A stretch of DNA of 64,000 bases from Candidatus Latescibacterota bacterium (lineage in GTDB: Bacteria > Latescibacterota > UBA2968): NCBI GenBank assembly GCA_965204375.1, contig OZ241986.1, positions 3,200,001 through 3,264,000 of the forward strand. Direction: 5' to 3'. The first letter of the stretch is position 1, and each line of letters begins with the position of its first letter. The notes below the pieces were generated by a model. The model had not been told where the DNA came from. It ran no database searches and saw nothing but the letters and a program-made list of their open reading frames with translations. Positions 35,897-48,072 of this stretch are shown here, piece by piece. The translations under genes and the position numbers were made by a program.

Positions 35897-38266
35897 CTAC
35901 CTTCGGTTGCTCCAAGCTTCAGGTTGAGAGTCGAGTACTTCGGCGTATTTCAGTCTCTCGAGCCGATCTTTTAGTGAGTCTTTGTTGCCAATCGGACCAT
36001 TAAGATCCTGGTTTAACTTCAAGTCATCCCGGATCCGTCTGACATCCGTCAGGAGAGCATCGCCCTCTACGGATGTGTCGACAATGGCCTCAATCCTCTC
36101 GAGCAGCACAACAATATCCGCTTTTGTTGCCGTAGAAAGACGATCTTTGAGAAAGAGTGCCTTCTCTCTTTCCACGCGAGCCGCGATGGATTCCTGCTCC
36201 CGTTCTCGTTCAGCTTTGCGTTGCATGGCTGTCAACTTGGAAAATAGTGCTGCGAATCGGCTTCGCATTTTATTTGCGGCCTCGGAATTTCTTTCTGCAC
36301 AGACGTCAAGGGCATGTCGGGCAAATCCGAGTTTCTCAAGGCGAAGTTCGCTACCGGCCTTGTCAAGACCCTTCTGGATCGCCTTGAAGACCCCAGTGGA
36401 TTCTGACAGCGATTCTTTAATGGTATCTGCTTCGGGGAACTCCTCGGGTAGCTCTATGTCCATCTCGCTCAGGTATTTTTTCGCAGCCTCTATCGCTATT
36501 TCTACCGGAATGAGATCCTCAATTTCTAAAGGTCCACCACACCGGTCGCTTGAAAGACCATCAACCGCGTTGGGTTTTAACTGCAGGACGTATTCGTCTC
36601 TGATCAACTGCTTGTTGCGGGGGCCGCCTCGCTGCAGATCTTTCACAGCACGGTCGCCTTCCTCGTCGCCATCGAGGAGCACAATAACTGCAGGCTTGTT
36701 GGCATCTCTGCCACGAGCCAAGAATGCCATGTACGGAACATGACTGGCAGATCCTGCTGGAACCAGAGTGATCCGATTTAGATCGAGACGTTGGGTGCTA
36801 GCGAAATTTGCTTTGCCGAGTAGGTCAGACATGCCAGCGAGGTATACCTGATCAGCCATTCCTTCCAACATCAGGTTGCAGTTCCCGATGAATGCCATCT
36901 CCCCTACGAAACCTCCCAATGCGGTACGAAGCGGCTCAAAGTGGTTGCGCCCAACATCGCGTACGACACGCACGCCTTCCTCGCCGGAGCCTTTATCGAG
37001 GACCCGAATCCGGTCAGCGCGGTTTTTGTCGATTAGGAATGGTGAGTGGGTTACAAATACAACTTGGCCTCCCGGAGCAGTCTCTGTGGGCAGTGTGAAC
37101 TCATGCAGGACTCGAAGGAGGTCCTGCTGACCTTGGTTAGACAAATATGCGTCTGGCTCATCCATTAGGAGAATCTCCGACCCAGAGCGGTCCTTGACAT
37201 GGGCCAAGAATTGAACGAGGTAGCTGAGGAAATATTTTAGGCCACTACTGCGTTCAGCAAAGGAATACTCGCTGCCCGTACGATCTCGGATAGTAAAGAC
37301 GATGTCGAAGTCTCGAACGGCAATCGCTAAACGAAACTGGTGATCCTGTGACCACCACTTGGAGAGATTTAGAGAGCTTTCCAGTTGTGAGTTCATTGAG
37401 GCCACAATGCCATTAGCAAGCCCTTCATCATCATTACGAAGAGCCTTCTGTAGTTCAACGAATGCCGAGACGTGGATGCCACCAACAGTTACCAGAAGAT
37501 CAAAGGCAAGGTTCAGTTGGTTGCAATGGGATTCTGTTTCCTGCGCACTCATCCTAGAAATATTTGATAAGAAGGACTGGATTTTTTGGCTAAAGTGCTG
37601 TGAATCAGGCATCTGTTTCGATAAATCCTGAGCATGTCCGAGTAAAGAATCTAAGAGTGTCAAGCGATCGGTACGCATCAGGTCTGGTTTTGCGTTTTGA
37701 TCCCCGTCTCTGTCAATCAAAAATGAAATCGGTACACTGTTTGGGATGGCACGTGCTGGATCAATGCGGAAGACCTTTGGGAGAAAACCAGCTAGTTTTT
37801 CGAGATCATTGATTTCATAATGCTGATCGTCTGTATATAGTGTCGCACTGTCGGCGCTAGTACGGAAAACCCGAAACGAGGAGATATTTAAATCATCAGG
37901 GGATTCAATGAGTTCTGATATTTCTTCAGCCTCGTCGGATGTAACATCTTCGAAATGGAGGCCAAAGTGCGGGATCTTCATGGCTTCTGAGACGGTGAAG
38001 TAATCGGAATATCGGCAAAAGTCTGCTGGCGTTGGGCACTCATTGCCTAGCGCGCATTCGATCGCCTGAAGGAATTGACTTTTTCCAGATTCGTTAGCAC
38101 CGACAATAGCCGTGAGTTCAGGGTCAATGTCAAGAGAAACGTAGGGGTAGAATGTATCGTCCTCCATCTGATCCCAAGGATCAGGCTGGGCATTGGGGTG
38201 CTGTTTTCGCAGGTAGTCGAAGTTGAAGGCTCGGTAAAATCTGACGTATGCGGTTCGAAGTATCAT
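35897..38266 (-). CDS. OLD-like ATP-dependent nuclease (ABC-type ATPase + TOPRIM)
   Basis: IVGANESGKS (Walker A), ERSSGLKYF, LLMDEPD, VTHSPF, then MLEGMADQVY and LLDGDEEG TOPRIM motifs. Confidence 0.85.
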   Translation of the reverse strand: MILRTAYVRFYRAFNFDYLRKQHPNAQPDPWDQMEDDTFYPYVSLDIDPELTAIVGANESGKSQFLQAIECALGNECPTPADFCRYSDYFTVSEAMKIPHFGLHFEDVTSDEAEEISELIESPDDLNISSFRVFRTSADSATLYTDDQHYEINDLEKLAGFLPKVFRIDPARAIPNSVPISFLIDRDGDQNAKPDLMRTDRLTLLDSLLGHAQDLSKQMPDSQHFSQKIQSFLSNISRMSAQETESHCNQLNLAFDLLVTVGGIHVSAFVELQKALRNDDEGLANGIVASMNSQLESSLNLSKWWSQDHQFRLAIAVRDFDIVFTIRDRTGSEYSFAERSSGLKYFLSYLVQFLAHVKDRSGSEILLMDEPDAYLSNQGQQDLLRVLHEFTLPTETAPGGQVVFVTHSPFLIDKNRADRIRVLDKGSGEEGVRVVRDVGRNHFEPLRTALGGFVGEMAFIGNCNLMLEGMADQVYLAGMSDLLGKANFASTQRLDLNRITLVPAGSASHVPYMAFLARGRDANKPAVIVLLDGDEEGDRAVKDLQRGGPRNKQLIRDEYVLQLKPNAVDGLSSDRCGGPLEIEDLIPVEIAIEAAKKYLSEMDIELPEEFPEADTIKESLSESTGVFKAIQKGLDKAGSELRLEKLGFARHALDVCAERNSEAANKMRSRFAALFSKLTAMQRKAEREREQESIAARVEREKALFLKDRLSTATKADIVVLLERIEAIVDTSVEGDALLTDVRRIRDDLKLNQDLNGPIGNKDSLKDRLERLKYAEVLDSQPEAWSNRR

Positions 38267-38476: not shown

Positions 38477-39265
38477 TCAAACAGATTCGCCAAAAGCACT
38501 TTTTTTGTACAGTTCCCTATGTTCTTCATCTATCAGTTCTACGGAAGATACATCCTCAAGAAGGGCATAATCCTCAACGAAATTTTTGAATTTGGCTCCT
38601 CGTTCGCTCAGACAATTGTAAAATAGAAGCCCCAATTCATAACTTGACAATTGTGCGCGGACAAGATTGGTATAGAGTTTTGTATCTTCTTTGAGAAGAT
38701 CGCTATGATGGTCAACAAATTTGACAACATTGTACAGATGCCTAAAGTAATACCCAACATGTGGCTCATAGGGAATTAAAAAACTTTCATAAGTATCATT
38801 GAGAATTTTCGCTTCAGGAGAATTACTACTTGCAGCTTTTTGGACTTTGGGATAATGTTCTTTTTTCAAATCATTAAGCATTTTAACAAAGCACTCCCGT
38901 CCGCCTACCATGTTCCGAATTTCCATTGTATTGACAATATCATTATGCAGGCTAAGAAGTTGAAAAAAGGCACTTCCAAAATTCTGCTTTTGAAGTTGTT
39001 CTTTTTGGAGTGCGAGTTCCGCTTGCTGAACGTGTAGCGTCCAAATGAGAATAGCAAAAGCCAGTCCAGTAAACAAAGCGGTGATAAAGCCAAACGAATC
39101 GCCCCATTGTCCTCTTTTCTCAACGCTAGGAACTAAATCTGGGAAAAACCATGCCCCCCAAAGAATGAGCAAACCAATGAGAACGACAAATATTCCCAAA
39201 CCTATTAAACCTGTTTTAATCTTTTTCCGCCAGTTCGTTTTCGATTCATCAGAACTTTTGTCCAT
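38477..39265 (-). CDS. Putative phage abortive infection protein (putAbiC-like), 2 N-terminal TM helices
   Basis: RGQWGDSFG, FFQLLSLH, YFRHLYNVVKFV, RAQLSSYELGLLFYN. Confidence 0.85.
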   Translation of the reverse strand: MDKSSDESKTNWRKKIKTGLIGLGIFVVLIGLLILWGAWFFPDLVPSVEKRGQWGDSFGFITALFTGLAFAILIWTLHVQQAELALQKEQLQKQNFGSAFFQLLSLHNDIVNTMEIRNMVGGRECFVKMLNDLKKEHYPKVQKAASSNSPEAKILNDTYESFLIPYEPHVGYYFRHLYNVVKFVDHHSDLLKEDTKLYTNLVRAQLSSYELGLLFYNCLSERGAKFKNFVEDYALLEDVSSVELIDEEHRELYKKSAFGESV

Positions 39266-39279
39266 GGAAACAACCTTTC

Positions 39280-41868
39280 CTAAATTTGCGCGTGTCCATT
39301 TATCTTCAATGCCTGATACAGGCTGTCCTTAAATTTATTCTCATCTTCATTGTTGTAAAACGGCACGCCAATCAAACGGTAGTTTTCGTTCTCAAATGTC
39401 AAGGTTTTGCAGTCAAACTCGGAAGAGATGTCCTGTAAGAAGTTTTCCTTCCAACGGTCATTCTCTTTCAGATGCTTCCCTTTGGGTTCAATAAACATCT
39501 GATAGGTAAGCAGGTTTCCATCTTGTTCTCGCAGAAACAGAACAAAATCTGGCTCAAATGCCTGTCCATCCTCAAAGTTATAAATCTTGAAATGCCTTTC
39601 GTTTCGCAGCAGATATATCTCGTCGTAATCTTCTGTTAGCTTGCCCATCTGGCGGTCGAGCATTCGCACAAATGCCTTTTCCTCACTCGTGCCGTAAACT
39701 GTATTGAAGGCAAACCAGTCTTTGGATGATACGAAATGTACGAATTGTGCATCCTCAGCGGCCTGCGGGTTTTGAGCGTCAAATTTTAACACTTTATCCT
39801 TGAAGACGTTATGCACCCTATCGCTCCTGAAATCTCGCGAGCCTTCGTATTCGGTAATTTGCTGGCGGATTTCGGATTCGATTTGGTGCAAAAGCCCGCA
39901 CACAGCTTCCCGCTGTTCAGCGCGGTTGTATTGCAACGCAGACACCTGGCCTTCAAAAGTGATCTCCAGCCCCCCAAGATAATTTTCAGAACTAATGAAT
40001 TCTCGAATAGATGCTATATTGGGGAAATAGCGTCTGAGGGATGAGAACGTAAAGAATGGATTGCGTGCAATAGCAGATTGAACAATATTCCGTCCAAAGT
40101 CTTTAACCTTCATATCCCGACGGTTTTCATCTTTCACAATTGCGCCCTGATGTTCGCTTGCCAAAACTGTTTGTGTGCCACCGTGACCTGTGGCGATGGT
40201 ATGAACGTAGTTTTGCATTTTCACACCTAAATCATCAAAAGATTGTACCCTCTGATAATTTTTGGGAAGACGGTCATTGAGCCAGACCACACCGTATTTG
40301 TAGAAGTCGGTCTGCTTGAACGGGTCTTTGAGTTTCAGTTTGCGGGTCACTTCGCGCTCATCCATCATGCCTTGCTCGATCAGCGCGGTGCGAAGTTCAG
40401 AGATATATCGGGAATCATGGATACTGTGATAATGCAACTCCTCCAGCACGCGCAGTTCATTTTCAAGGTCATCATCAAATTTTCGACAGAAGCGGTCAGT
40501 GTTCTCGGGTAAAACAAAAGGAAAATAACGCGCTCCACGACCAATGAGTTGCGCTTCGGAAAGGGTTGTTCTCCCAATTCTATTCTTTCCCGAGTCACGC
40601 GCTTCGTAACAGCGGACAATGTCGAACAGATTCAGGACATCCCAACCCTCATTGAGTTTTTGTACAGCAAAGATAGCGCGGATGAGATTGTCTCGGTCTT
40701 CGAGCGTGTTGACCAGTATTTGGTAGTTCTCCTTCTCTTTTTCTGCGTTGACTGAGATGCAGTAGTCTTCCTGAAATGCCCGCTTGAGGCGTTCTGCCAA
40801 CTGCGCGTCACTGATATTGTGATCATCAAAGAATTGAAACGCCCGCAAAACAAGAGGAATATCCGATCTGCGAATGCGAGCTATATGGTCTGCTGTGAGA
40901 CCATCAACGAGTGTGTGAAAGTTGGTCTTGTTCTCTTGCGATTGTGCAATCGTACGCTGTGCTTTGAACAAAATCACGGGTTTGAGATTGATCTGATATT
41001 TCGCAGCCACTTCCTGTTTGTACTGGCTAAGAATCAGAGCTTGTAGGATGCGCTCGTCCAGGTCGAAGTCGGATTGCACAATGACTACATCTTTTGAAAA
41101 ACGGTCGTTGCGGAATTGAAGCAAATCATAGCGGTATAATACCTTGTTGCGGTATTTTTCCACCATCGCAGGCGTCTCGTAATCGTGCGTGGCCGTGAAC
41201 TCCAAGAGGAGATTGTCTTCATTCTGGGAGAAGATGCGCTCAACGGTATTTTCCCAACTCTCGAACATCTCTCGCTGAGATTTGGTCGTAACGTTCATGT
41301 GATGGGCTTCATCGGCAATCAACACAATCCTGTGTTTGCGGAAGTCTTCAAAAGTGATGGCATTTTCTTTTTCAGTAGTCAGATCGGAGTGTAGTTTTTG
41401 GATGGTGGTGAAACAGATATTGATATCGTTGGGATTAACCGACTCGAAGTTCTCTACTGGTGCGATTCGCACGGAGCGGTTGGCGATGTGAATATCCCTG
41501 CTGAACAGGTATTTGATACTGACGGGATTGAGAAAATTGTCCCGCGTCTTTTCGATGATATTGGTGGAATTGACGAAAAAGAGAAAGTTTCTATATCCCT
41601 TTTCATACAAGTAGAGAATCAGCCCCGCCATGATAAGCGTCTTGCCGCTGCCTGTCGCCATGTTGAACAGAAAATGCAGTGGCCGTTCCTTGCCGGGAAA
41701 CTCCTTATCAAGACAGTGAAAGAACCGGGTAAACGCCTCTTCTTGATAGGGGCGGAGTTCAAATTTAGGATTCAGATTGTCTTTGAGGTAGGAGGGGATT
41801 TCTTTTTGGAGAAATCCCATTTGGAAAACAGCATCAAGCTGCTCATATAGAAAATTATCAGCCATCAT
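39280..41868 (-). CDS. res: Type III restriction endonuclease Res subunit
   Basis: LRPYQ, MATGSGKT, DEAHH, EFTAT, LNEGWDV, QLIGRGAR, PDFVLF...IEPKG (PD-(D/E)xK). Confidence 0.93.
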   Translation of the reverse strand: MMADNFLYEQLDAVFQMGFLQKEIPSYLKDNLNPKFELRPYQEEAFTRFFHCLDKEFPGKERPLHFLFNMATGSGKTLIMAGLILYLYEKGYRNFLFFVNSTNIIEKTRDNFLNPVSIKYLFSRDIHIANRSVRIAPVENFESVNPNDINICFTTIQKLHSDLTTEKENAITFEDFRKHRIVLIADEAHHMNVTTKSQREMFESWENTVERIFSQNEDNLLLEFTATHDYETPAMVEKYRNKVLYRYDLLQFRNDRFSKDVVIVQSDFDLDERILQALILSQYKQEVAAKYQINLKPVILFKAQRTIAQSQENKTNFHTLVDGLTADHIARIRRSDIPLVLRAFQFFDDHNISDAQLAERLKRAFQEDYCISVNAEKEKENYQILVNTLEDRDNLIRAIFAVQKLNEGWDVLNLFDIVRCYEARDSGKNRIGRTTLSEAQLIGRGARYFPFVLPENTDRFCRKFDDDLENELRVLEELHYHSIHDSRYISELRTALIEQGMMDEREVTRKLKLKDPFKQTDFYKYGVVWLNDRLPKNYQRVQSFDDLGVKMQNYVHTIATGHGGTQTVLASEHQGAIVKDENRRDMKVKDFGRNIVQSAIARNPFFTFSSLRRYFPNIASIREFISSENYLGGLEITFEGQVSALQYNRAEQREAVCGLLHQIESEIRQQITEYEGSRDFRSDRVHNVFKDKVLKFDAQNPQAAEDAQFVHFVSSKDWFAFNTVYGTSEEKAFVRMLDRQMGKLTEDYDEIYLLRNERHFKIYNFEDGQAFEPDFVLFLREQDGNLLTYQMFIEPKGKHLKENDRWKENFLQDISSEFDCKTLTFENENYRLIGVPFYNNEDENKFKDSLYQALKINGHAQI

Positions 41869-41870
41869 AT

Positions 41871-42131
41871 CTAATCTCTGTACACTTCACGACGATGCTG
41901 GACCCGGTAAACTTCAATCTCCCGCTTTTTTCGGTCAACAACATAGACGACGCGATAATCGCCCACGCGCAGTCTGAACCGGCCTTGATCCGGTCCAGTG
42001 AGTGCCGTCAGTTTGGTAGCCTCAAAGTTCTCGGCTAACCACCGCAGTTTTCCAATTACGCGCTGTGCTGTTGCCCTATCCAAACGTCGTACATCAGATT
42101 GAGCACGATCCGAAAATACCACATCATACAT
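41871..42131 (-). CDS. relE: RelE/ParE family toxin
   Basis: YDVVFSDRAQSDVRRL, LTG, FRLRVGDYRVVY, HRREVYR; ATG overlaps the mod stop (TAATG). Confidence 0.93.
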   Translation of the reverse strand: MYDVVFSDRAQSDVRRLDRATAQRVIGKLRWLAENFEATKLTALTGPDQGRFRLRVGDYRVVYVVDRKKREIEVYRVQHRREVYRD

Positions 42132-44254
42132 TACCAATTAAGCCCCAATTCTTCGGCGACTTTCTCGGCAGGGGTAGTCTTTCCACCAGCTTTCACATCG
42201 GCGATGGTCTGCTGGAGATCTGCGACAAATTCGTCGCGCAATTCCAACCCCTCGTCGGGATCATGTCCGTAGAACTCCTCGTTTAATTCCTTGTCTCCCG
42301 CGCTTATGCCAAAGTCCTCGTCGTCAATCTCCGAAAAATTCACATACAACTGATTCTTGTCCAGCAGTTCCACCAGCAACTTCTTCTGCTTGCTCACCCC
42401 ATTTTCTCCTTCGCCGATGGCGATAAAATCGTTGACTGCATCTTCCGGGATTTCAGGATTCACATACCAATTCAAAAACGAATTTTCGGCAATATCTCGC
42501 CAGAGTGCTACAAGCTCTTTTGAAGATTGCGCGGCTTGAATTTTATCCATATAGACTTCGTTGTATTGCATCAGTTCACAATAGACAAAGTCGCCACCGC
42601 CCTTCCATGCGACGGATTTAGATATACCGCCAGCGTCATATTCAATTTTTTTGGGTAGTTTGTCCTTCGCCTTAATTTTTTTTCCAACAACTTTTTTTAT
42701 TCGTTCAAGCGTGATAGTTTCCACATAATCCATCTGTTCAATTCCGATATACTGACGTCCCATTTTGTGAGCGACAGAGCAAGTCGTTCCACTTCCCAAA
42801 TGGAAATCTAAAACAATATCTCCTTCTTCAGTTGTGTATTCAATAATGCGTTGAATGAGTAATTCAGGTTTTGGATAAGCAAACACTTTGCCCCCGAATA
42901 ATTCTACAATTTCATCCGTGCCTTTCTTGTTGGTCACACTCTTTAGCAATTCATCCATCACTTGATTGAGAAAGTTTGATGATACGTATGTTTTATCAAA
43001 GTCGGCTCCTTTTTTTTCAATTTCTTCCGACTTAAAAACTCGCATAGCAGGGCGTTTAAGATTGAGAAAATCATAATCGCCGGGAAAAACTATTTTCTTT
43101 CTTTTCAGATATTCATCTACTGAATCTTTAGTAATACCCCAGCAACGATTAGGATTAACGGGAAACTCTTGCTCATTTCTCGGATTGACCAATGTGAAAT
43201 TTGAATTAGGGCGTTCATGAATTGTGCGTTGAGTAGTAAGATCGCTCGTTCTCCATTCATCGTCTGGAAAATCGGGTGTTTTATAATACTTTCTTACAAT
43301 GGTGCGCCCGAAAAGCTCATCTTTCTTCGATGCGCCTTTTGTGTACATCAGCATCCAGTCAAAATCTTGTGATAGTTTATAAGGCACATCGCTTTTTCCA
43401 CTTCGTGTCTTTCTGGGAACAGTTGCGATAAAATTGTCTCTGCCAAATATATCGTCAGCAATGAGTTTCAAATAGTGCATTTCTTGGTCGCCAATGTGAA
43501 TGAAGATAACCCCTTCATTCTTCAACAACTCTCTCGCCACTTCCAGCCGATTCCTCATAAACGTCAGCCAGCTTGAATGTTTGAAATTGTCGTTATATCC
43601 AAAGCCATCACCATTGATGTTATAGGGCGGATCAATGTAAATTAGCGTCACCTTACCCTGGAACTGCTGTTTGAGCGTGTGCAATGCCACCAAATTATTG
43701 CCCTTTATAATCAAGTTTTCACGGATCGTGCCACTTTCATCCCGTTTGAACCCCATCACGTCCTCTTCACCATCCACCGTATAGCGTTTCCACTGGGTCA
43801 ATACCTTTGGATCAAATAGCCGGTCAATCTCGTCCTGTGCCAGAATTTCATTGAAGAAAATCTCTTTGCGCTTTTCCTCTTCCTTGGTCTGCCCGCCCTC
43901 CAGTACACAATCTTTGTACGGCCACACCAGGGACACTTCACCTCGCTCCCGCAGAAATTTATCGTCGATATTCAAACCAATCCTGTTGCGGAATCGGGTG
44001 TATGCATTGGCGAGAAAGTTCTTATCGGAAACATATTCGATAAAGGTGTTGATATTGAAAATCCAGTGGCCTTCGATTTCGTCAAAAAATTTTGCCTTGA
44101 TATCCGCATCACCAAGCAGCAGTCTCACAAGATCAGGATCAATCTTCCAAGCTCGATCTGTCACTGCAGCCTTGACCAACTCGCCCTCTTCATCAATGAA
44201 ACGGGCGTCGGTTTTGAGCAATTCGATCAATTTTTCGTTAAAGTTTTTTGACAT
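42131..44254 (-). CDS. mod: Type III R-M Mod subunit (beta-class m6A methyltransferase) with C-terminal antitoxin-like extension
   Basis: IIKGNNL, IYIDPPYN, HSSWLTFMRNRL, YPKPE, VLDFHLGSGTT; extra 44 aa after DKELNEEFYG. Confidence 0.93.
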   Translation of the reverse strand: MSKNFNEKLIELLKTDARFIDEEGELVKAAVTDRAWKIDPDLVRLLLGDADIKAKFFDEIEGHWIFNINTFIEYVSDKNFLANAYTRFRNRIGLNIDDKFLRERGEVSLVWPYKDCVLEGGQTKEEEKRKEIFFNEILAQDEIDRLFDPKVLTQWKRYTVDGEEDVMGFKRDESGTIRENLIIKGNNLVALHTLKQQFQGKVTLIYIDPPYNINGDGFGYNDNFKHSSWLTFMRNRLEVARELLKNEGVIFIHIGDQEMHYLKLIADDIFGRDNFIATVPRKTRSGKSDVPYKLSQDFDWMLMYTKGASKKDELFGRTIVRKYYKTPDFPDDEWRTSDLTTQRTIHERPNSNFTLVNPRNEQEFPVNPNRCWGITKDSVDEYLKRKKIVFPGDYDFLNLKRPAMRVFKSEEIEKKGADFDKTYVSSNFLNQVMDELLKSVTNKKGTDEIVELFGGKVFAYPKPELLIQRIIEYTTEEGDIVLDFHLGSGTTCSVAHKMGRQYIGIEQMDYVETITLERIKKVVGKKIKAKDKLPKKIEYDAGGISKSVAWKGGGDFVYCELMQYNEVYMDKIQAAQSSKELVALWRDIAENSFLNWYVNPEIPEDAVNDFIAIGEGENGVSKQKKLLVELLDKNQLYVNFSEIDDEDFGISAGDKELNEEFYGHDPDEGLELRDEFVADLQQTIADVKAGGKTTPAEKVAEELGLNW

Positions 44255-45125
44255 GTTGTGGTCCTTTAACGTTTATTTTTTTGGTGTTATCGGCCGTTTG
44301 TAGCTTTGAAACCAAATCATTTACAGCCGCTTGCACTACTGACCAGGATATTTGATACGTATCGGCATCTGGATATATACCTGTAGTCATCTGCTCATAT
44401 GGATGAATAAGATTTCTAAAATCTCTCAATGCATGTGAAAACTTTTGAACATCCGTATTGATCCAACCAATTTGATGCGCCACATCTATCATTTCGGCAA
44501 GTTTCCAATCGGAAAATTTTTTTATCTTGTTCGTTTTTGGATCTTTAGGAGCACTCGCGCATTTATTGGCTTCTGCTGGATTCTGTTGAAAAATTCCGAA
44601 CAGCAATCCTTCCAATATGCTACCCATGATAATTATTGCCGATAAATATGTTCCAGCTTTACCACAATTTTGCGCTTCATCCCATCTGTTTTTTAGTATC
44701 TTTCCGACCTCGGGTCTTAATCCAATTGACAAAAAATCTGGAGGTGGAAACAGCTTCATCTCTTTTGTAACCTCACCATCATCTGAAAAATCTACAGCGA
44801 TTTTTTTAAATTTTGGTTCATTGCCATCAAGTATTATTTTGAATCCTTCAAAATAAAATATGTTATTTAGCTGCTTAAGCGCAGTTCTAATTTGCTCCTG
44901 ATTACCGCCGTACTCAAATGGTGAGGCCAGCCTTTTAAGTACAAGTGCAAGTTGTTCTCTGTTACACGCTTTTAGTGTTTCTAAAACCCATAACCGACGG
45001 GTTGAGCCATCATGAACAAATTGAGGTAATCCCACTCTTTGAAAGAATTTAGTTAGTTCGTGGCCAGATCGATAAGGATAACCACAAATAAACTCGGCAA
45101 TTTCATTGAAAGTACTTTCATCCAT
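44238..45125 (-). CDS. Defence-associated protein: AbiJ-NTD-like N-terminus plus HEPN-like C-terminal domain
   Basis: YRSGHELTKFF N-terminus; SAIIIMGSILEGLL and LRDFRNLIHP (HEPN-type R...H); overlaps the mod start. Confidence 0.75.
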   Translation of the reverse strand: MDESTFNEIAEFICGYPYRSGHELTKFFQRVGLPQFVHDGSTRRLWVLETLKACNREQLALVLKRLASPFEYGGNQEQIRTALKQLNNIFYFEGFKIILDGNEPKFKKIAVDFSDDGEVTKEMKLFPPPDFLSIGLRPEVGKILKNRWDEAQNCGKAGTYLSAIIIMGSILEGLLFGIFQQNPAEANKCASAPKDPKTNKIKKFSDWKLAEMIDVAHQIGWINTDVQKFSHALRDFRNLIHPYEQMTTGIYPDADTYQISWSVVQAAVNDLVSKLQTADNTKKINVKGPQHVKKL

Positions 45126-45166
45126 TTCAAACTTCCTCAGACACTACAAAACTTTATAGCTGTATT

Positions 45167-46618
45167 CTATCCCAGTTTCTCCCGCAATAACTGACTGGCT
45201 TTTTGGGGATTCGCCTGGCCTTTTGTAGCTCTCATAAGCTGGCCCATAAAGAACCCCATAAGCTTCTGGTCGCCGCCTTTGAACCGCTCAACCTCGTCGG
45301 GATTATCCGCTATAATCTGATCGATCACGCCATCGAGTTCACCCGCATCGCTAATCTGCACAAGCCCCTTCTTCTCCACAATAGACGATGCACTCTCCCC
45401 TGTCTCCACCATATCGTCAAAAACCGTTCGCGCGATATTGGTACTGATATCGCCCTTATCGATCAAACCAATCAATTCTGCGAGAGATTCAGCCGAGACA
45501 CGCAAATCGCCAATCGCGATCTTCCGATCATTGAGAACGCGCATCACATCGCCCTGTATCCAATTGGCCGCGAGCCTGCTCTGCACACCCGCCGCAACCG
45601 TAGCTTCAAAATAATCCGCAACATCTCGACCTGCAGTAAGCACCTCAATCTGATCGACAGACATATCGTAATCTTCTGCAAACCGCGCGCGTTTGGCCTC
45701 TGGCAACTCTGGAATCTGGTTCTGAACGCGCTCGACCCAGGCATGATCTACGACAAGTGGAACCAGATCCGGATCGGGGAAATAGCGATAATCGTCCGAC
45801 TCCTCTTTTGTACGCATAGCGCGCAAAATATTGCGATCGGGATCGTAGAGCATCGTCGCCTGCTCAATTTCACCGCCGGTCTCAACCAAACCAATCTGCC
45901 GCTGAATCTCGGACTCAATAGCGCGCTGGCAATTGCGAAAAGAATTGACATTTTTGATCTCAACCTTTGTGCCGAGTTGGGTTTCTCCAACGGGCCGAAT
46001 CGACACATTGGCATCAATCCGCATATGTCCTTTCTCCATATCGCCTTCAGAAACACCCGTGTACACCAGCAATTGATGCAAACTCGTCAGATAGTGAAAA
46101 ACTTCCTCCGGCGTCGAAAGATCCGGCTCACTCACAATCTCGATAAGCGGCACCCCACAGCGATTGACATCCACGAGAGACTCCCCTGCAGCCACAAAAG
46201 CTTCCTGATGGATGCTCTTGCCAGCATCTTCTTCCATATGGATACGCGTAAGACGAATAGTCTTTGTACCGCCGTCCTCCGTGGGCACCTCAACACCCCC
46301 GCCAGTAGCCAGAGGCATTTCTTCATTCGATTGAAACTGCGAAATCTGATACCCCTTGGGCAGATCGGGATAAAAATAATTCTTCCGCAAAAAACGGCTG
46401 CGCGGTTGAATCGTACAACCTGCGGCCAGCGCAATACGCATCGCCAGTTCAACGACATTCTGATTCAGCACGGGAAGCGCACCCGGCAAGCCCAAACACA
46501 CCGGACAAACATGGGTATTGGGATCGGCGCCAAACTCGGCACTACATCCGCAAAAAATTTTGGTCGTAGTCGCAAGTTGGGCGTGTACTTCCAGACCGAT
46601 GACAGATTCGTAAGTCAT
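45167..46618 (-). CDS. gatB: Asp/Glu-tRNA amidotransferase subunit B
   Basis: [44 protein letters not shown]. Confidence 0.98.
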
Positions 46619-48072
46619 AACGCCAATTCTCTTTCCACAACCGCAGACGCGCTCAAAATGGTCTCTTCGGCAAAAGTATTGCCGAGCAATTGCAAGCCCA
46701 CGGGCAAGCCTTCAGTCGATGTACCACAAGGCACCGAAATACCGGGAATACCCGCGAGATTCACAGAAACAGTATAAATATCGGAAAGATACATCTGAAG
46801 CGGATCGTCGAGTTTTTCACCCAGCTTGAATGCCGGAGTAGGCGATACGGGCGAAGCGAGAAGATCGCAGGATTCAAACGCGCGGTCAAAATCTCGACGA
46901 ATAAGCGTCCGCACCTGTTGCGCCTTGCGATAATACGCATCGTAATACCCCGCACTCAGCGCGTAAGTACCCAGCATAATGCGACGCTTGACCTCTGCGC
47001 CAAAACCCTTGCTACGCGTTTGAACATACATATCAATCAGGTTTTCTGCCTCATCGCGGAAGCCGTATTTCACCCCATCGTAACGCGACAAATTTGACGA
47101 CGCCTCAGCCGTAGCGATAATATAATAAGCGGCAATAGCAAAAGCGGGATGGCCGGCAGTTGGCAGCGAAACTTCGCGAATAGACGCGCCATTTTTTTTC
47201 AGAATGTCAACCCCTTGCATGACGGCATTGCGAACATCGGATTGCAGACCCTCGCCGAAAAACTCTGTCGGCAAGCCAATGGTGAGACCATCAACGCCTC
47301 TTTGACAAGCCAAAAGGTAATCGGGCACCGGTACATGGGCAGAGGTAGAATCGCGGGAATCGTGCCCGGCAATAACGCCGAACAGGGTGGCCGCATCTTC
47401 GACAGTACGCGCAAATGGGCCAATCTGGTCGAGAGAAGAAGCATAAGCGATCAGGCCATAACGAGAAACGCGACCGTAAGTGGGTTTAAGCCCCACCACA
47501 CCGCAGAAAGATGCGGGCAAACGAACAGACCCCCCTGTGTCAGACCCCAGAGTCATAAGAGCCTGACCGGCAGCAACAGCAGCTGCAGAGCCACCGCTGG
47601 ACCCACCTGTTACACGGGTTTGATCACGCGGATTTTTGACCGAACCAAAATGGGAATTTTCGCTGGAAGAGCCCATGGCAAACTCATCCATATTGAGTTT
47701 GCCCAGGATGATTGCATCGGCCTGACGCAGACGGGTAACAACGGTTGCATCATAAGGTGGGATAAAATTATCGAGAATTTTTGAAGCACAGGTCGTGCGC
47801 AGCCCTTTGGTACACAACACATCTTTCAGGGCAATCGGGATGCCTGCAAGAGGGCCAAGGACCTGCCCCTCTGCGGCCTTTTGATCGACAGCATCTGCAG
47901 CTTTGAGCGCGCCTTCTTCATCAACGGTAATGAAGGCATTGATATCGGGGTTTGTATTTTGGATGTGCGCGAGGATCTCTTCCGTTATTTCGCGGGCTGT
48001 GTGCGTACCCCTGCGAATGCCCTGTACAAGCTCCCGCGCTGTTTGGACGGAAAAAACAGAGTCGTCAGACAC
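46615..48072 (-). CDS. gatA: Asp/Glu-tRNA amidotransferase subunit A
   Basis: [51 protein letters not shown]. Confidence 0.98.

Follow-up and report, generated by a model that had tools for sequence, protein, structure and literature searches.

How is a toxin gene kept silent when it lies inside a restriction-modification (R-M) operon and no antitoxin gene adjoins it? The question is raised by a 64,000-nucleotide stretch of DNA (the window) from a Candidatus Latescibacterota bacterium (contig OZ241986.1, positions 3,200,001 to 3,264,000), in which a type III R-M operon on the minus strand carries a gene for a RelE-like toxin between mod and res. Our analysis points to the methyltransferase Mod, whose C-terminal tail resembles the neutralising half of a small antitoxin. 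Mod together with its tail is encoded at 42131-44254 (minus strand, 707 amino acids, stop included). The native body (residues 1-663, 42266-44254) is a type III DNA methyltransferase that ends in ...ELNEEFYG, and the translation then continues in frame for 44 residues beyond FYG (HDPDEG...GLNW; residues 664-707, 42134-42265, HDPDEGLELRDEF...AEELGLNW), none of which is a methionine. The stop codon of mod (42133-42131) and the ATG of relE (42131-42129) overlap by a single base in a TAATG junction at 42129-42133. The relE gene (41871-42131, minus strand, 86 amino acids from the ATG, stop included) terminates at 41873-41871, and res (39280-41868, minus strand, 862 amino acids) starts at 41868 after a gap of 2 nucleotides. 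The ATG of relE was preferred to a TTG two codons upstream because it matches the MY.V.F start conserved in 15 homologues. An earlier note on this DNA had described the gene order, the overlap, the gap and the Met-free tail, all of them correctly, and had stated that no separate antitoxin reading frame adjoins relE; besides the tail, there is indeed none in the list of open reading frames (ORFs).

The identity of the three proteins was assessed with profile searches. Mod matches PF12564 (6.6e-19, residues 39-94) and PF01555 (2.8e-45, residues 202-512), the signatures of the type III N-terminal domain and of a methyltransferase domain of the beta class (N6/N4), and its translation contains DPPY near residue 208 and FHLGSGTT near residue 484. 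The PADLOC profile MTase_III (PDLC03635, 2.6e-174) covers residues 128-663; since this match stops at ...EEFYG, the tail lies outside the methylase profile. Res, the restriction helicase-nuclease subunit, matches PF04851 (1.1e-32) and, over residues 7-851, the PADLOC profile REase_III (PDLC03651, 2.5e-143); it is encoded downstream of mod on the same strand with only relE in between. The toxin belongs to the RelE/ParE superfamily (PF05016, 1.1e-11, 45.5 bits for a cut-off of 23). It scores below the cut-off of the RelE/StbE subfamily (TIGR02385, 24.3 bits versus 27.9) and was therefore filed under the superfamily and named RelE-like. A profile built from 16 homologues retrieved 2khe (1.6e-15), Rv2866 (3g5o, 4.4e-07) and RelE (9g12, 1.6e-06) from the PDB. 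In these 16 sequences, with identities down to 51%, H79, R81, Y84 and 19 further positions are invariant. The C-terminal motif H79-R80-R81-E82-V83-Y84, invariant or nearly so, aligns with H-A-R-D-V-Y-R of 2khe and H-R-A-D-I-Y-R of Rv2866, and its conserved Arg and Tyr residues may correspond to the catalytic ones of E. coli RelE.

We then searched proteins of 28-91 amino acids with the last 52 residues of Mod, which include eight native ones. The query returned five stand-alone proteins of 81 amino acids (P0007-P0011), which share 80% identity with the tail over their C-terminal 43-44 residues (38-81). Nothing in Mod corresponds to the 38 residues at their N-terminus (..KVADLTIDEFRELVQEVVIQTLSEMM.), and it lacks the N-terminal helix of the stand-alone antitoxin. 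Over the C-terminal halves of stand-alone antitoxins of about 74-81 amino acids, the identity to the tail is 73-80%. The neighbours were inspected by scanning species-representative genomes for the toxin. Nine loci were found, one of which (L009, a 35% match over 46 residues within a 553-residue frame) was left out, and two are near-identical operons of genomes labelled Latescibacterota. The six others, labelled Acidobacteriota, Anaerolineales, Cytophagia, Planctomycetaceae (two) and Desulfarculaceae, encode RelE homologues 52-58% identical to that of the window. In all six, an antitoxin-family ORF of 72-85 amino acids lies directly upstream of relE and abuts it, with the pattern ..ADLTVDEF..L.REVV.QTL.E..GDPDEGLELR.DF..EL....A.....GKT.P...VA..LGLTW. 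The antitoxin coding sequence of the stand-alone pairs ends 2-3 nucleotides before the relE start, so that its stop codon reaches or overlaps the ATG in a geometry like that of the mod-relE junction. The order expected of a type II toxin-antitoxin (TA) module, with the antitoxin encoded directly upstream of the toxin, is thus found here with the antitoxin as a domain of Mod. Because the upstream ORF recurs in six of six loci, the tail can be identified by homology as the C-terminal half of the usual antitoxin partner of this RelE family. Such an origin had been suggested in the earlier note, and the tail search with inspection of the neighbours bears it out.

The antitoxin family is large and, by its sequence, a separate one. 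At E <= 0.001 it comprises 899 representative clusters, mostly of 70-78 amino acids; the best 150 of these 899 include seven of 132-183 amino acids and a single large protein, a Mod. No Pfam family matched the stand-alone relatives above threshold, and a search of the PDB with the antitoxin gave no solved sequence relative, a designed coiled coil being hit at E = 1.4. Two assignments of the antitoxin were rejected: HAAS of Pfam remained below threshold (16.9 bits for a cut-off of 27), as did the RelB-family antitoxin NF048017, which scored 15.1 bits for a cut-off of 50 (E = 0.02) with tail residues aligned to positions 39-68 of the 70 in the profile. The latter match is read as a resemblance to RelB, not as membership. 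The rest of the genome contains only a 55-residue remnant of the antitoxin family, which has no relE beside it, and the three other RelE paralogues are paired with unrelated antitoxins.

It could be argued that a missed stop codon or an indel in the assembly conceals a separate antitoxin gene. Real pseudogenes or indel errors of assembly do occur in such material: in two database proteins (P0134, P0135) a frameshift interrupts the tail, and translation continues in the +1 frame (..WKDYPCRESR..). However, the sequence ahead of the tail is the conserved native C-terminus of Mod and not the N-terminal half of the antitoxin, so that no indel could restore a stand-alone antitoxin. Furthermore, the same in-frame fusion is present in 36 other protein clusters and in six other genomes of the phylum, and a DNA contig of 2730 nucleotides from a different study spans 41554-42648 with 38 substitutions and zero gaps, including the mod-tail junction for which a check had been proposed. 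An RNA-library contig of 4158 nucleotides covers 41300-42741, from res through relE and the tail into mod, and its only gaps are two compensating single-base ones at 42665 and 42670, within the mod body. For practical purposes these data refute the artefact, and we regard the fusion as real with near certainty. The RNA-library contig also bridges the junctions between the genes, a hint of co-transcription, although DNA carry-over is possible and contigs are blind to the ends and levels of transcripts. Another such contig (X17, 8233 nucleotides, depth 166.7) breaks at window positions 42056 and 42735-42739, like the deletion form of genome G076 described below. The runs that contain this stretch or close relatives (X4, X12-X17) are mostly labelled sponge, coral or marine metagenome and come from 12 studies; these labels, with four runs aligned, provide a lead as to the habitat.

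The distribution of the tail among Mod proteins shows that it is not a normal Mod terminus. Mod has 1608 homologues at E <= 0.001. Among the best 120 of the 1608, 83 end 1-14 residues past FYG, where the proteins of this subfamily had been said to end, and 37 bear the tail. The tail as query matched 34 longer proteins, 31 with Mod Pfam domains and three that are short C-terminal Mod fragments. The tailed Mods form two sequence clades of equal length from DPD to the end: the terminus of clade 1 reads ..EEFYG[HQ]DPDEGLELRDEF...LGLNW and that of the more divergent clade 2 ..HEFFTGEHVDPDEGLEL.EEF...NLG..L, both of them keeping the pattern DPD..L.L..EF..T..LG. By the labels of their source metagenome bins, which are possibly inexact, they come from Latescibacterota, Gemmatimonadota and, in the case of clade 2, Gammaproteobacteria. 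Among 168 Latescibacterota genomes, 28 have a tail-like match, and in seven it stands at the end of a long Mod frame; the synteny of tailed mod, relE and res, for which a search had been advised, was found in other genomes of the phylum.

Two variants of the tailed Mods were also observed. The tail of the P0037 cluster (labelled Gemmatimonadota) is a mosaic, with a first half like that of the fused clade (..RDEFVAELQQSIADVEAG) and last 16 residues (KTVPAQKVAERLGLTW) identical to those of the stand-alone antitoxins of the window's genus, which suggests recombination between fused and free antitoxin copies. Moreover, 15 of the 37 tailed clusters (P0012, P0013, P0015, P0019-P0030) have only 457-458 amino acids owing to an in-frame deletion of residues 267-501. 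They keep the N-terminus, the C-terminal domain and the tail and have lost the target-recognition region and the FxGxG motif; this short form looks like a long-lived remnant of a collapsed operon.

Binding of the tail to the toxin, the modeling of which had been proposed in the earlier note, was evaluated with RelE and the 52-residue query, each with an alignment of 16 rows built in this analysis. The complex reached ipSAE values of 0.72, 0.73 and 0.73 versus 0.01 for the best control, the pLDDT of the partner was at least 75, and the runs agreed in at least 87% of the contacts. The pass mark applied was met by 58 of 80 solved complexes and by 2 of 110 mismatched pairs. The predicted interface extends on the tail from the D of DPD to the final W, and on RelE it involves residues 3-11 and 80-85. 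The GKTTPA segment of the tail would pair with residues 3-6 in the first strand of RelE, and the first tail helix would contact residues 80 and 82-85, within the C-terminal H-R-R-E-V-Y motif; no contacts are predicted for the eight native Mod residues of the query. The model supports binding of the tail to RelE. In a model of the entire Mod, the tail appears as two helices (674-688 and 696-702) after a linker (653-673) with a pLDDT under 50, and the mean pLDDT of 62.2 and pTM of 0.49 are too weak to tell whether the tail is free. Tail homology, the end of the methylase profile and the controlled complex model together designate residues 664-707 as derived from an antitoxin, and the proposal that Mod itself is the antitoxin is well supported. 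We consider it quite probable that the tail is the working antitoxin.

We compared the window's locus (G000) with that of a genome of a different family in the same class (G117). At the amino-acid level, the two Mods are 62% and the two Res proteins 65% identical, versus 83% for RelE and 80% for the 44-residue tail. The synonymous divergence (dS) amounts to 0.29 in the tail and 0.25 in relE, versus 1.56 for the Mod N-terminus, 1.22 for the Mod C-terminal domain and saturation for Res. A sliding window showed 80-93% nucleotide identity from about nucleotide 1605 of mod to about nucleotide 300 of res (operon nucleotide 2685), flanked by 60-70%, and the trend was repeated against two genomes of the same genus. 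The low dS of tail and relE within diverged mod and res genes indicates that the two travel together. They were probably exchanged between divergent type III operons more recently than these operons diverged, most simply by recombination through the Mod C-terminus and the Res N-terminus.

Of the seven fused loci of the phylum, four (G000, G088, G072, G117) have an intact relE, each with an in-frame tail and an intact res, and none has an intact relE without the tail. The ratio of nonsynonymous to synonymous divergence (dN/dS) at the loci with intact relE is 0.26-0.49 for relE and 0.28-0.41 for the tail. The toxin gene is deleted or truncated in the three others, two of which keep Mod with its tail and Res intact. 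In G085, residues 2-70 of RelE have been lost by an in-frame deletion; the L of LGL, which is elsewhere invariant, is changed in the tail, for which dN/dS is 1.16 (from very few sites). In G090, 217 unrelated bases stand in place of relE; this spacer ends in ..MLSREGLYEYHL, a remnant of the VapB-like extension described below. In G076 (L042), decay extends over the whole locus: Mod, split near residue 80, is without residues 267-501, relE breaks off after codon 25, and Res survives as residues 760-859 only. If the tail is an antitoxin, loss of the toxin first would be the safe order of decay.

The reading that we favor, and hold to be rather more probable than all its alternatives taken together, is that of a type II TA cassette nested in the mod-res junction, with the neutralising half of the antitoxin grafted onto Mod and with an addiction-type role. 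The tail would wrap RelE, with GKTTPA laid against the first strand and the first helix over the H-R-R-E-V-Y motif, so that RelE, made by translational coupling to mod, would be kept inactive on Mod. Neutralisation would then depend on the continued synthesis of full-length, in-frame Mod, and RelE would be freed by loss of the operon, by shut-off of its expression, or by a nonsense or frameshift mutation anywhere in mod. Such an addiction device would tie the cell to the intact mod gene and to the operon; abortive infection, for instance upon shut-off by a phage, would be a possible by-product. The selected effect would most likely be the stabilisation of the cassette, of the mod reading frame and of the operon that it has parasitised. 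Both TA pairs and restriction systems are known to act in addiction and in defence, and they are often adjacent; the post-segregational killing that is classical for type II systems is not known from those of type III, since Res needs Mod. The fusion may have arisen from an ancestral order mod, antitoxin, relE, res by a deletion of about 150 nucleotides that removed the mod stop codon, the spacer and antitoxin codons 1-38, and the cassette of tail and relE would later have spread between divergent type III operons by recombination in the conserved regions for the C-terminus of Mod and the N-terminus of Res. It is plausible that a segment neutralises from a foreign carrier, because the neutralising segment Phd-C is reported to act on its toxin when fused to SUMO, and not as an isolated segment (PMC10440598). 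C-terminal truncations of RelB have been engineered to study the suppression of RelE, and the title of that study calls the RelB C terminus essential (PMC12301738).

Several results weigh against this reading. The lost half of the antitoxin may be needed for dimerisation, regulation or full neutralisation, and classical addiction is made less likely by the carrier, since a protein of 707 amino acids would hardly be degraded as fast as a labile antitoxin. The pass of the complex may partly reflect likeness, similar RelE-antitoxin architectures having been solved, and within the tail, conservation at the predicted interface positions is not significantly higher than elsewhere (mean entropy 0.59 versus 0.68, one-sided p = 0.28). 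The dS values of the cassette come from small numbers of synonymous sites, 29 in the tail and about 64 in relE. The rule that an intact relE implies an in-frame tail rests on four related loci, too few for a test, and the loss of relE at three of seven fused loci indicates that the toxin is dispensable. Finally, no locus of clade 2 was confirmed: a metagenome scan with an alignment of seven tails gave 292 pattern hits and a viral-contig scan 175 hits, none of them confirmed, and a metagenome scan with the full-length clade-2 protein P0149 gave 22 loci, all with tail-less Mods.

The closest alternative, raised in the earlier note, makes the toxin a guardian of the restriction system: RelE would ride on Mod2Res via the tail and be freed when a phage inhibits or degrades Mod or halts its synthesis, whereupon translation would stop and the infected cell would be sacrificed. 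This idea fits the proposed binding mechanism and departs from the favored reading only in the function that selection would act on. The toxin gene is embedded in an R-M locus, as expected of a guardian, and binding of RelE by the tail, as modeled, would anchor the toxin to the restriction enzyme. The setting is a defence island, with an AbiP/AbiC-like gene and an AriA/Old/GajA-like ABC ATPase downstream; restriction guardians exist, PrrC embedded in a type Ic locus and PARIS being described as such in a 2025 review (PMC12707154). However, release of the toxin from a carrier that is large and folded would be slow without a cut in the low-confidence linker 653-673, and two of the three fused loci without a functional relE have kept their restriction genes intact. 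In addition, a transposase, another TA pair and other cargo occupy the same junction at four of 13 tail-less loci, which speaks for an insertion hotspot rather than a designed partnership. We therefore rate the guardian as a minority possibility, and a main role in addiction or in locking of the mod frame, which we put at slightly below an even chance, ahead of a phage-triggered guard. More speculative by a little than the guardian is a combination of both, with RelE as a built-in third subunit, up to two per Mod2Res, released when a phage interferes with Mod or its supply and in addition locking the mod frame as a portable insurance cassette, which would spread between type III operons by recombination in their conserved flanks. 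A nonsense mutation, a frameshift or phase variation in the 2.1-kb mod would then become lethal, which would guard the defence system against decay. As to phase variation, mod contains no simple-sequence repeat, and only two weak 2-copy repeats were found in 39000-45300.

The fusion might instead be a relic, that is, a neutral deletion scar with an idle tail and a RelE that is non-toxic or otherwise controlled. The tail persists without an intact relE in G085, G090 and G076, so that its presence alone is no proof of function, and the toxin scores below the cut-off of TIGR02385. These observations are outweighed by the invariant H79, R81 and Y84 with their 19 companions, by the dN/dS of relE and tail where relE is intact, by the retention of pattern and length in two diverged tail clades and by the lack of another cognate antitoxin in the genome; even the altered tail of G085, at a locus with a destroyed relE, speaks against an idle tail. 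We consider the relic improbable. It is about as improbable, or by a shade more so, that the antitoxin is a free peptide for which Mod serves as a translational vehicle, made by internal initiation in the 3′ end of mod or by clipping of the linker. The low confidence of the linker 653-673, in-frame TTG codons at both Leu of GLEL and C-terminal ORFs of 90 and 110 amino acids called on other contigs would fit such a product. However, the tail has no Met, and these short ORFs start inside conserved Mod sequence and may only reflect contig ends or frame errors. Seven promoter-like sites were found versus 11.7 expected by chance, none of them in the 3′ end of mod or beside relE, where an internal relE promoter was sought. 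The isolated segment reported to fail in neutralisation unless placed on a stabilising carrier (PMC10440598) also argues against a free peptide.

If the favored reading holds, survival of the cell would hang on an intact Mod, and the type III system would become addictive and resistant to decay. An mRNA-cleaving toxin would sit on a restriction enzyme, which would make the idea of a guardian of restriction directly testable. For the TA field the locus would provide a natural case of a neutralising segment transplantable onto an unrelated carrier, and a widespread antitoxin family of about 74 amino acids without a Pfam model is documented.

The cassette shares with RelBE modules the RelE/ParE fold of the toxin (PF05016; relatives 2khe, 3g5o and RelE), a neutralising segment encoded directly upstream with a stop/start overlap and, in the model, the covering of the conserved C-terminal motif of the toxin. 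It differs from them in that the C-terminal half of the antitoxin is carried by a methyltransferase of 663 residues instead of a small labile protein, in the absence of the N-terminal half, through which any autoregulation would be lost, and in an antitoxin that is no RelB by sequence and has no PDB relative. As in PrrC/EcoprrI and PARIS, a gene for a translation-targeting toxin lies inside an R-M operon and is presumably silenced by the R-M proteins. This is an analogy without any claim of homology, since the system is here of type III and not of type I as in EcoprrI, the toxin fold is another one, and silencing would use a grafted antitoxin peptide in place of native subunit contacts. The mod-res junction is a recurrent insertion point, as known for other R-M cargo such as TA pairs, transposases and the rlo genes of type I loci (RloB in type I R-M operons is cited in PMC10440598); such cargo keeps its own reading frames, whereas the antitoxin is here merged with the host gene. 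Modular or fused antitoxins (accessory-domain antitoxins such as PanA, the single-chain CapRel and the engineered Phd-C-SUMO construct; PMC10440598) likewise place a short linear neutralising segment on an unrelated globular carrier. Here, the carrier is an enzyme subunit of another defence system, the toxin is still a separate gene, and the fusion is natural and conserved in records labelled as several phyla. No description of an antitoxin-Mod fusion or of a relE between mod and res was found in the open full-text literature searched, with subscription-only papers and supplements outside its scope, in line with the novelty first supposed. TA modules, R-M cargo and guardians are known; the natural graft of a neutralising peptide on a methylase, under three phylum labels, is new.

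The junction between mod and res was further surveyed at 13 metagenomic loci that lack the tail and include the end of mod as well as the start of res. In nine of them mod abuts res (-10 to +78 nucleotides), and four carry cargo: an IS200-like transposase, a GxxExxY protein with a RhuM-like protein, a VapBC-like pair of an antitoxin and a PIN toxin (L056), and an unnamed protein of 215 amino acids. The earlier note was thus right that mod directly next to res is the norm. Embedding of cargo at this junction, TA pairs included, is ordinary, and the fusion is the special element. An unfused relative is provided by G089, a genome of the same genus whose orthologous operon encodes a Mod 86% and a Res 88% identical over the parts compared. 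Its mod ends in ...NRAFYGDS* and is followed by a spacer of 37 nucleotides, a full-length antitoxin gene with the N-terminal helix, a toxin gene and res; a VapB-like extension takes the place of the last antitoxin residues, and the toxin encoded is a PIN-domain VapC. The mod-res junction of this lineage can thus accommodate a separate antitoxin gene. Stand-alone antitoxin-relE pairs were seen directly downstream of gatB in four further genomes of the genus. Since gatB (45167-46618) is in the window one gene upstream of mod, the gatB/mod neighborhood appears to be a variable hotspot.

The antitoxin of G089 belongs to a second type of fusion, in which residues 1-79 are followed by a VapB-like extension (..QLSDDKFE.LAD.LADEFM.YVGPDCPPLSDYAVSREGLYEDHL) for a total of 125-138 amino acids. 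It was observed at six loci, L024 (G074), L026 (G089), L028 (G082), L030 (G083), L031 (G087) and L041 (G090); in four of the six a PIN-domain VapC of 147 amino acids comes next, without relE. Two of these loci are decayed. That of G083 consists of gatB, a truncated extended antitoxin, a C-terminal remnant of RelE (..HFAKHRREVY) and an N-terminal remnant of Res, and that of G087 of mod (..FYGE*), another small two-gene pair, the extended antitoxin and res fragments.

Downstream of res, two defence-type genes are encoded on the minus strand, and gatB/gatA lie at 45167-48072, so that the operon is located in a defence island next to gatB/gatA. The nearer gene (38477-39265) encodes a membrane protein of 262 amino acids with a putAbiC domain (PF16872, 6.8e-24; PADLOC AbiP, 8e-17). 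The other (35897-38266) encodes an ABC-type ATPase of 789 amino acids with AriA/Old/GajA-like matches, in which LLDGDEEGD may presumably be read as a Toprim-like motif. On the other side, an ORF of 295 amino acids (44238-45125, minus strand) overlaps the mod start by 17 nucleotides. It gave no Pfam or PADLOC match; its language-model look-alikes are unnamed clusters, with weaker leads of the DUF4145/AbiJ_NTD5 type (scores 0.91-0.94). In the sister operons L001 and L002, mod is preceded by genes that differ from this ORF in length, the one property compared, so that the ORF is probably separate cargo of the island.

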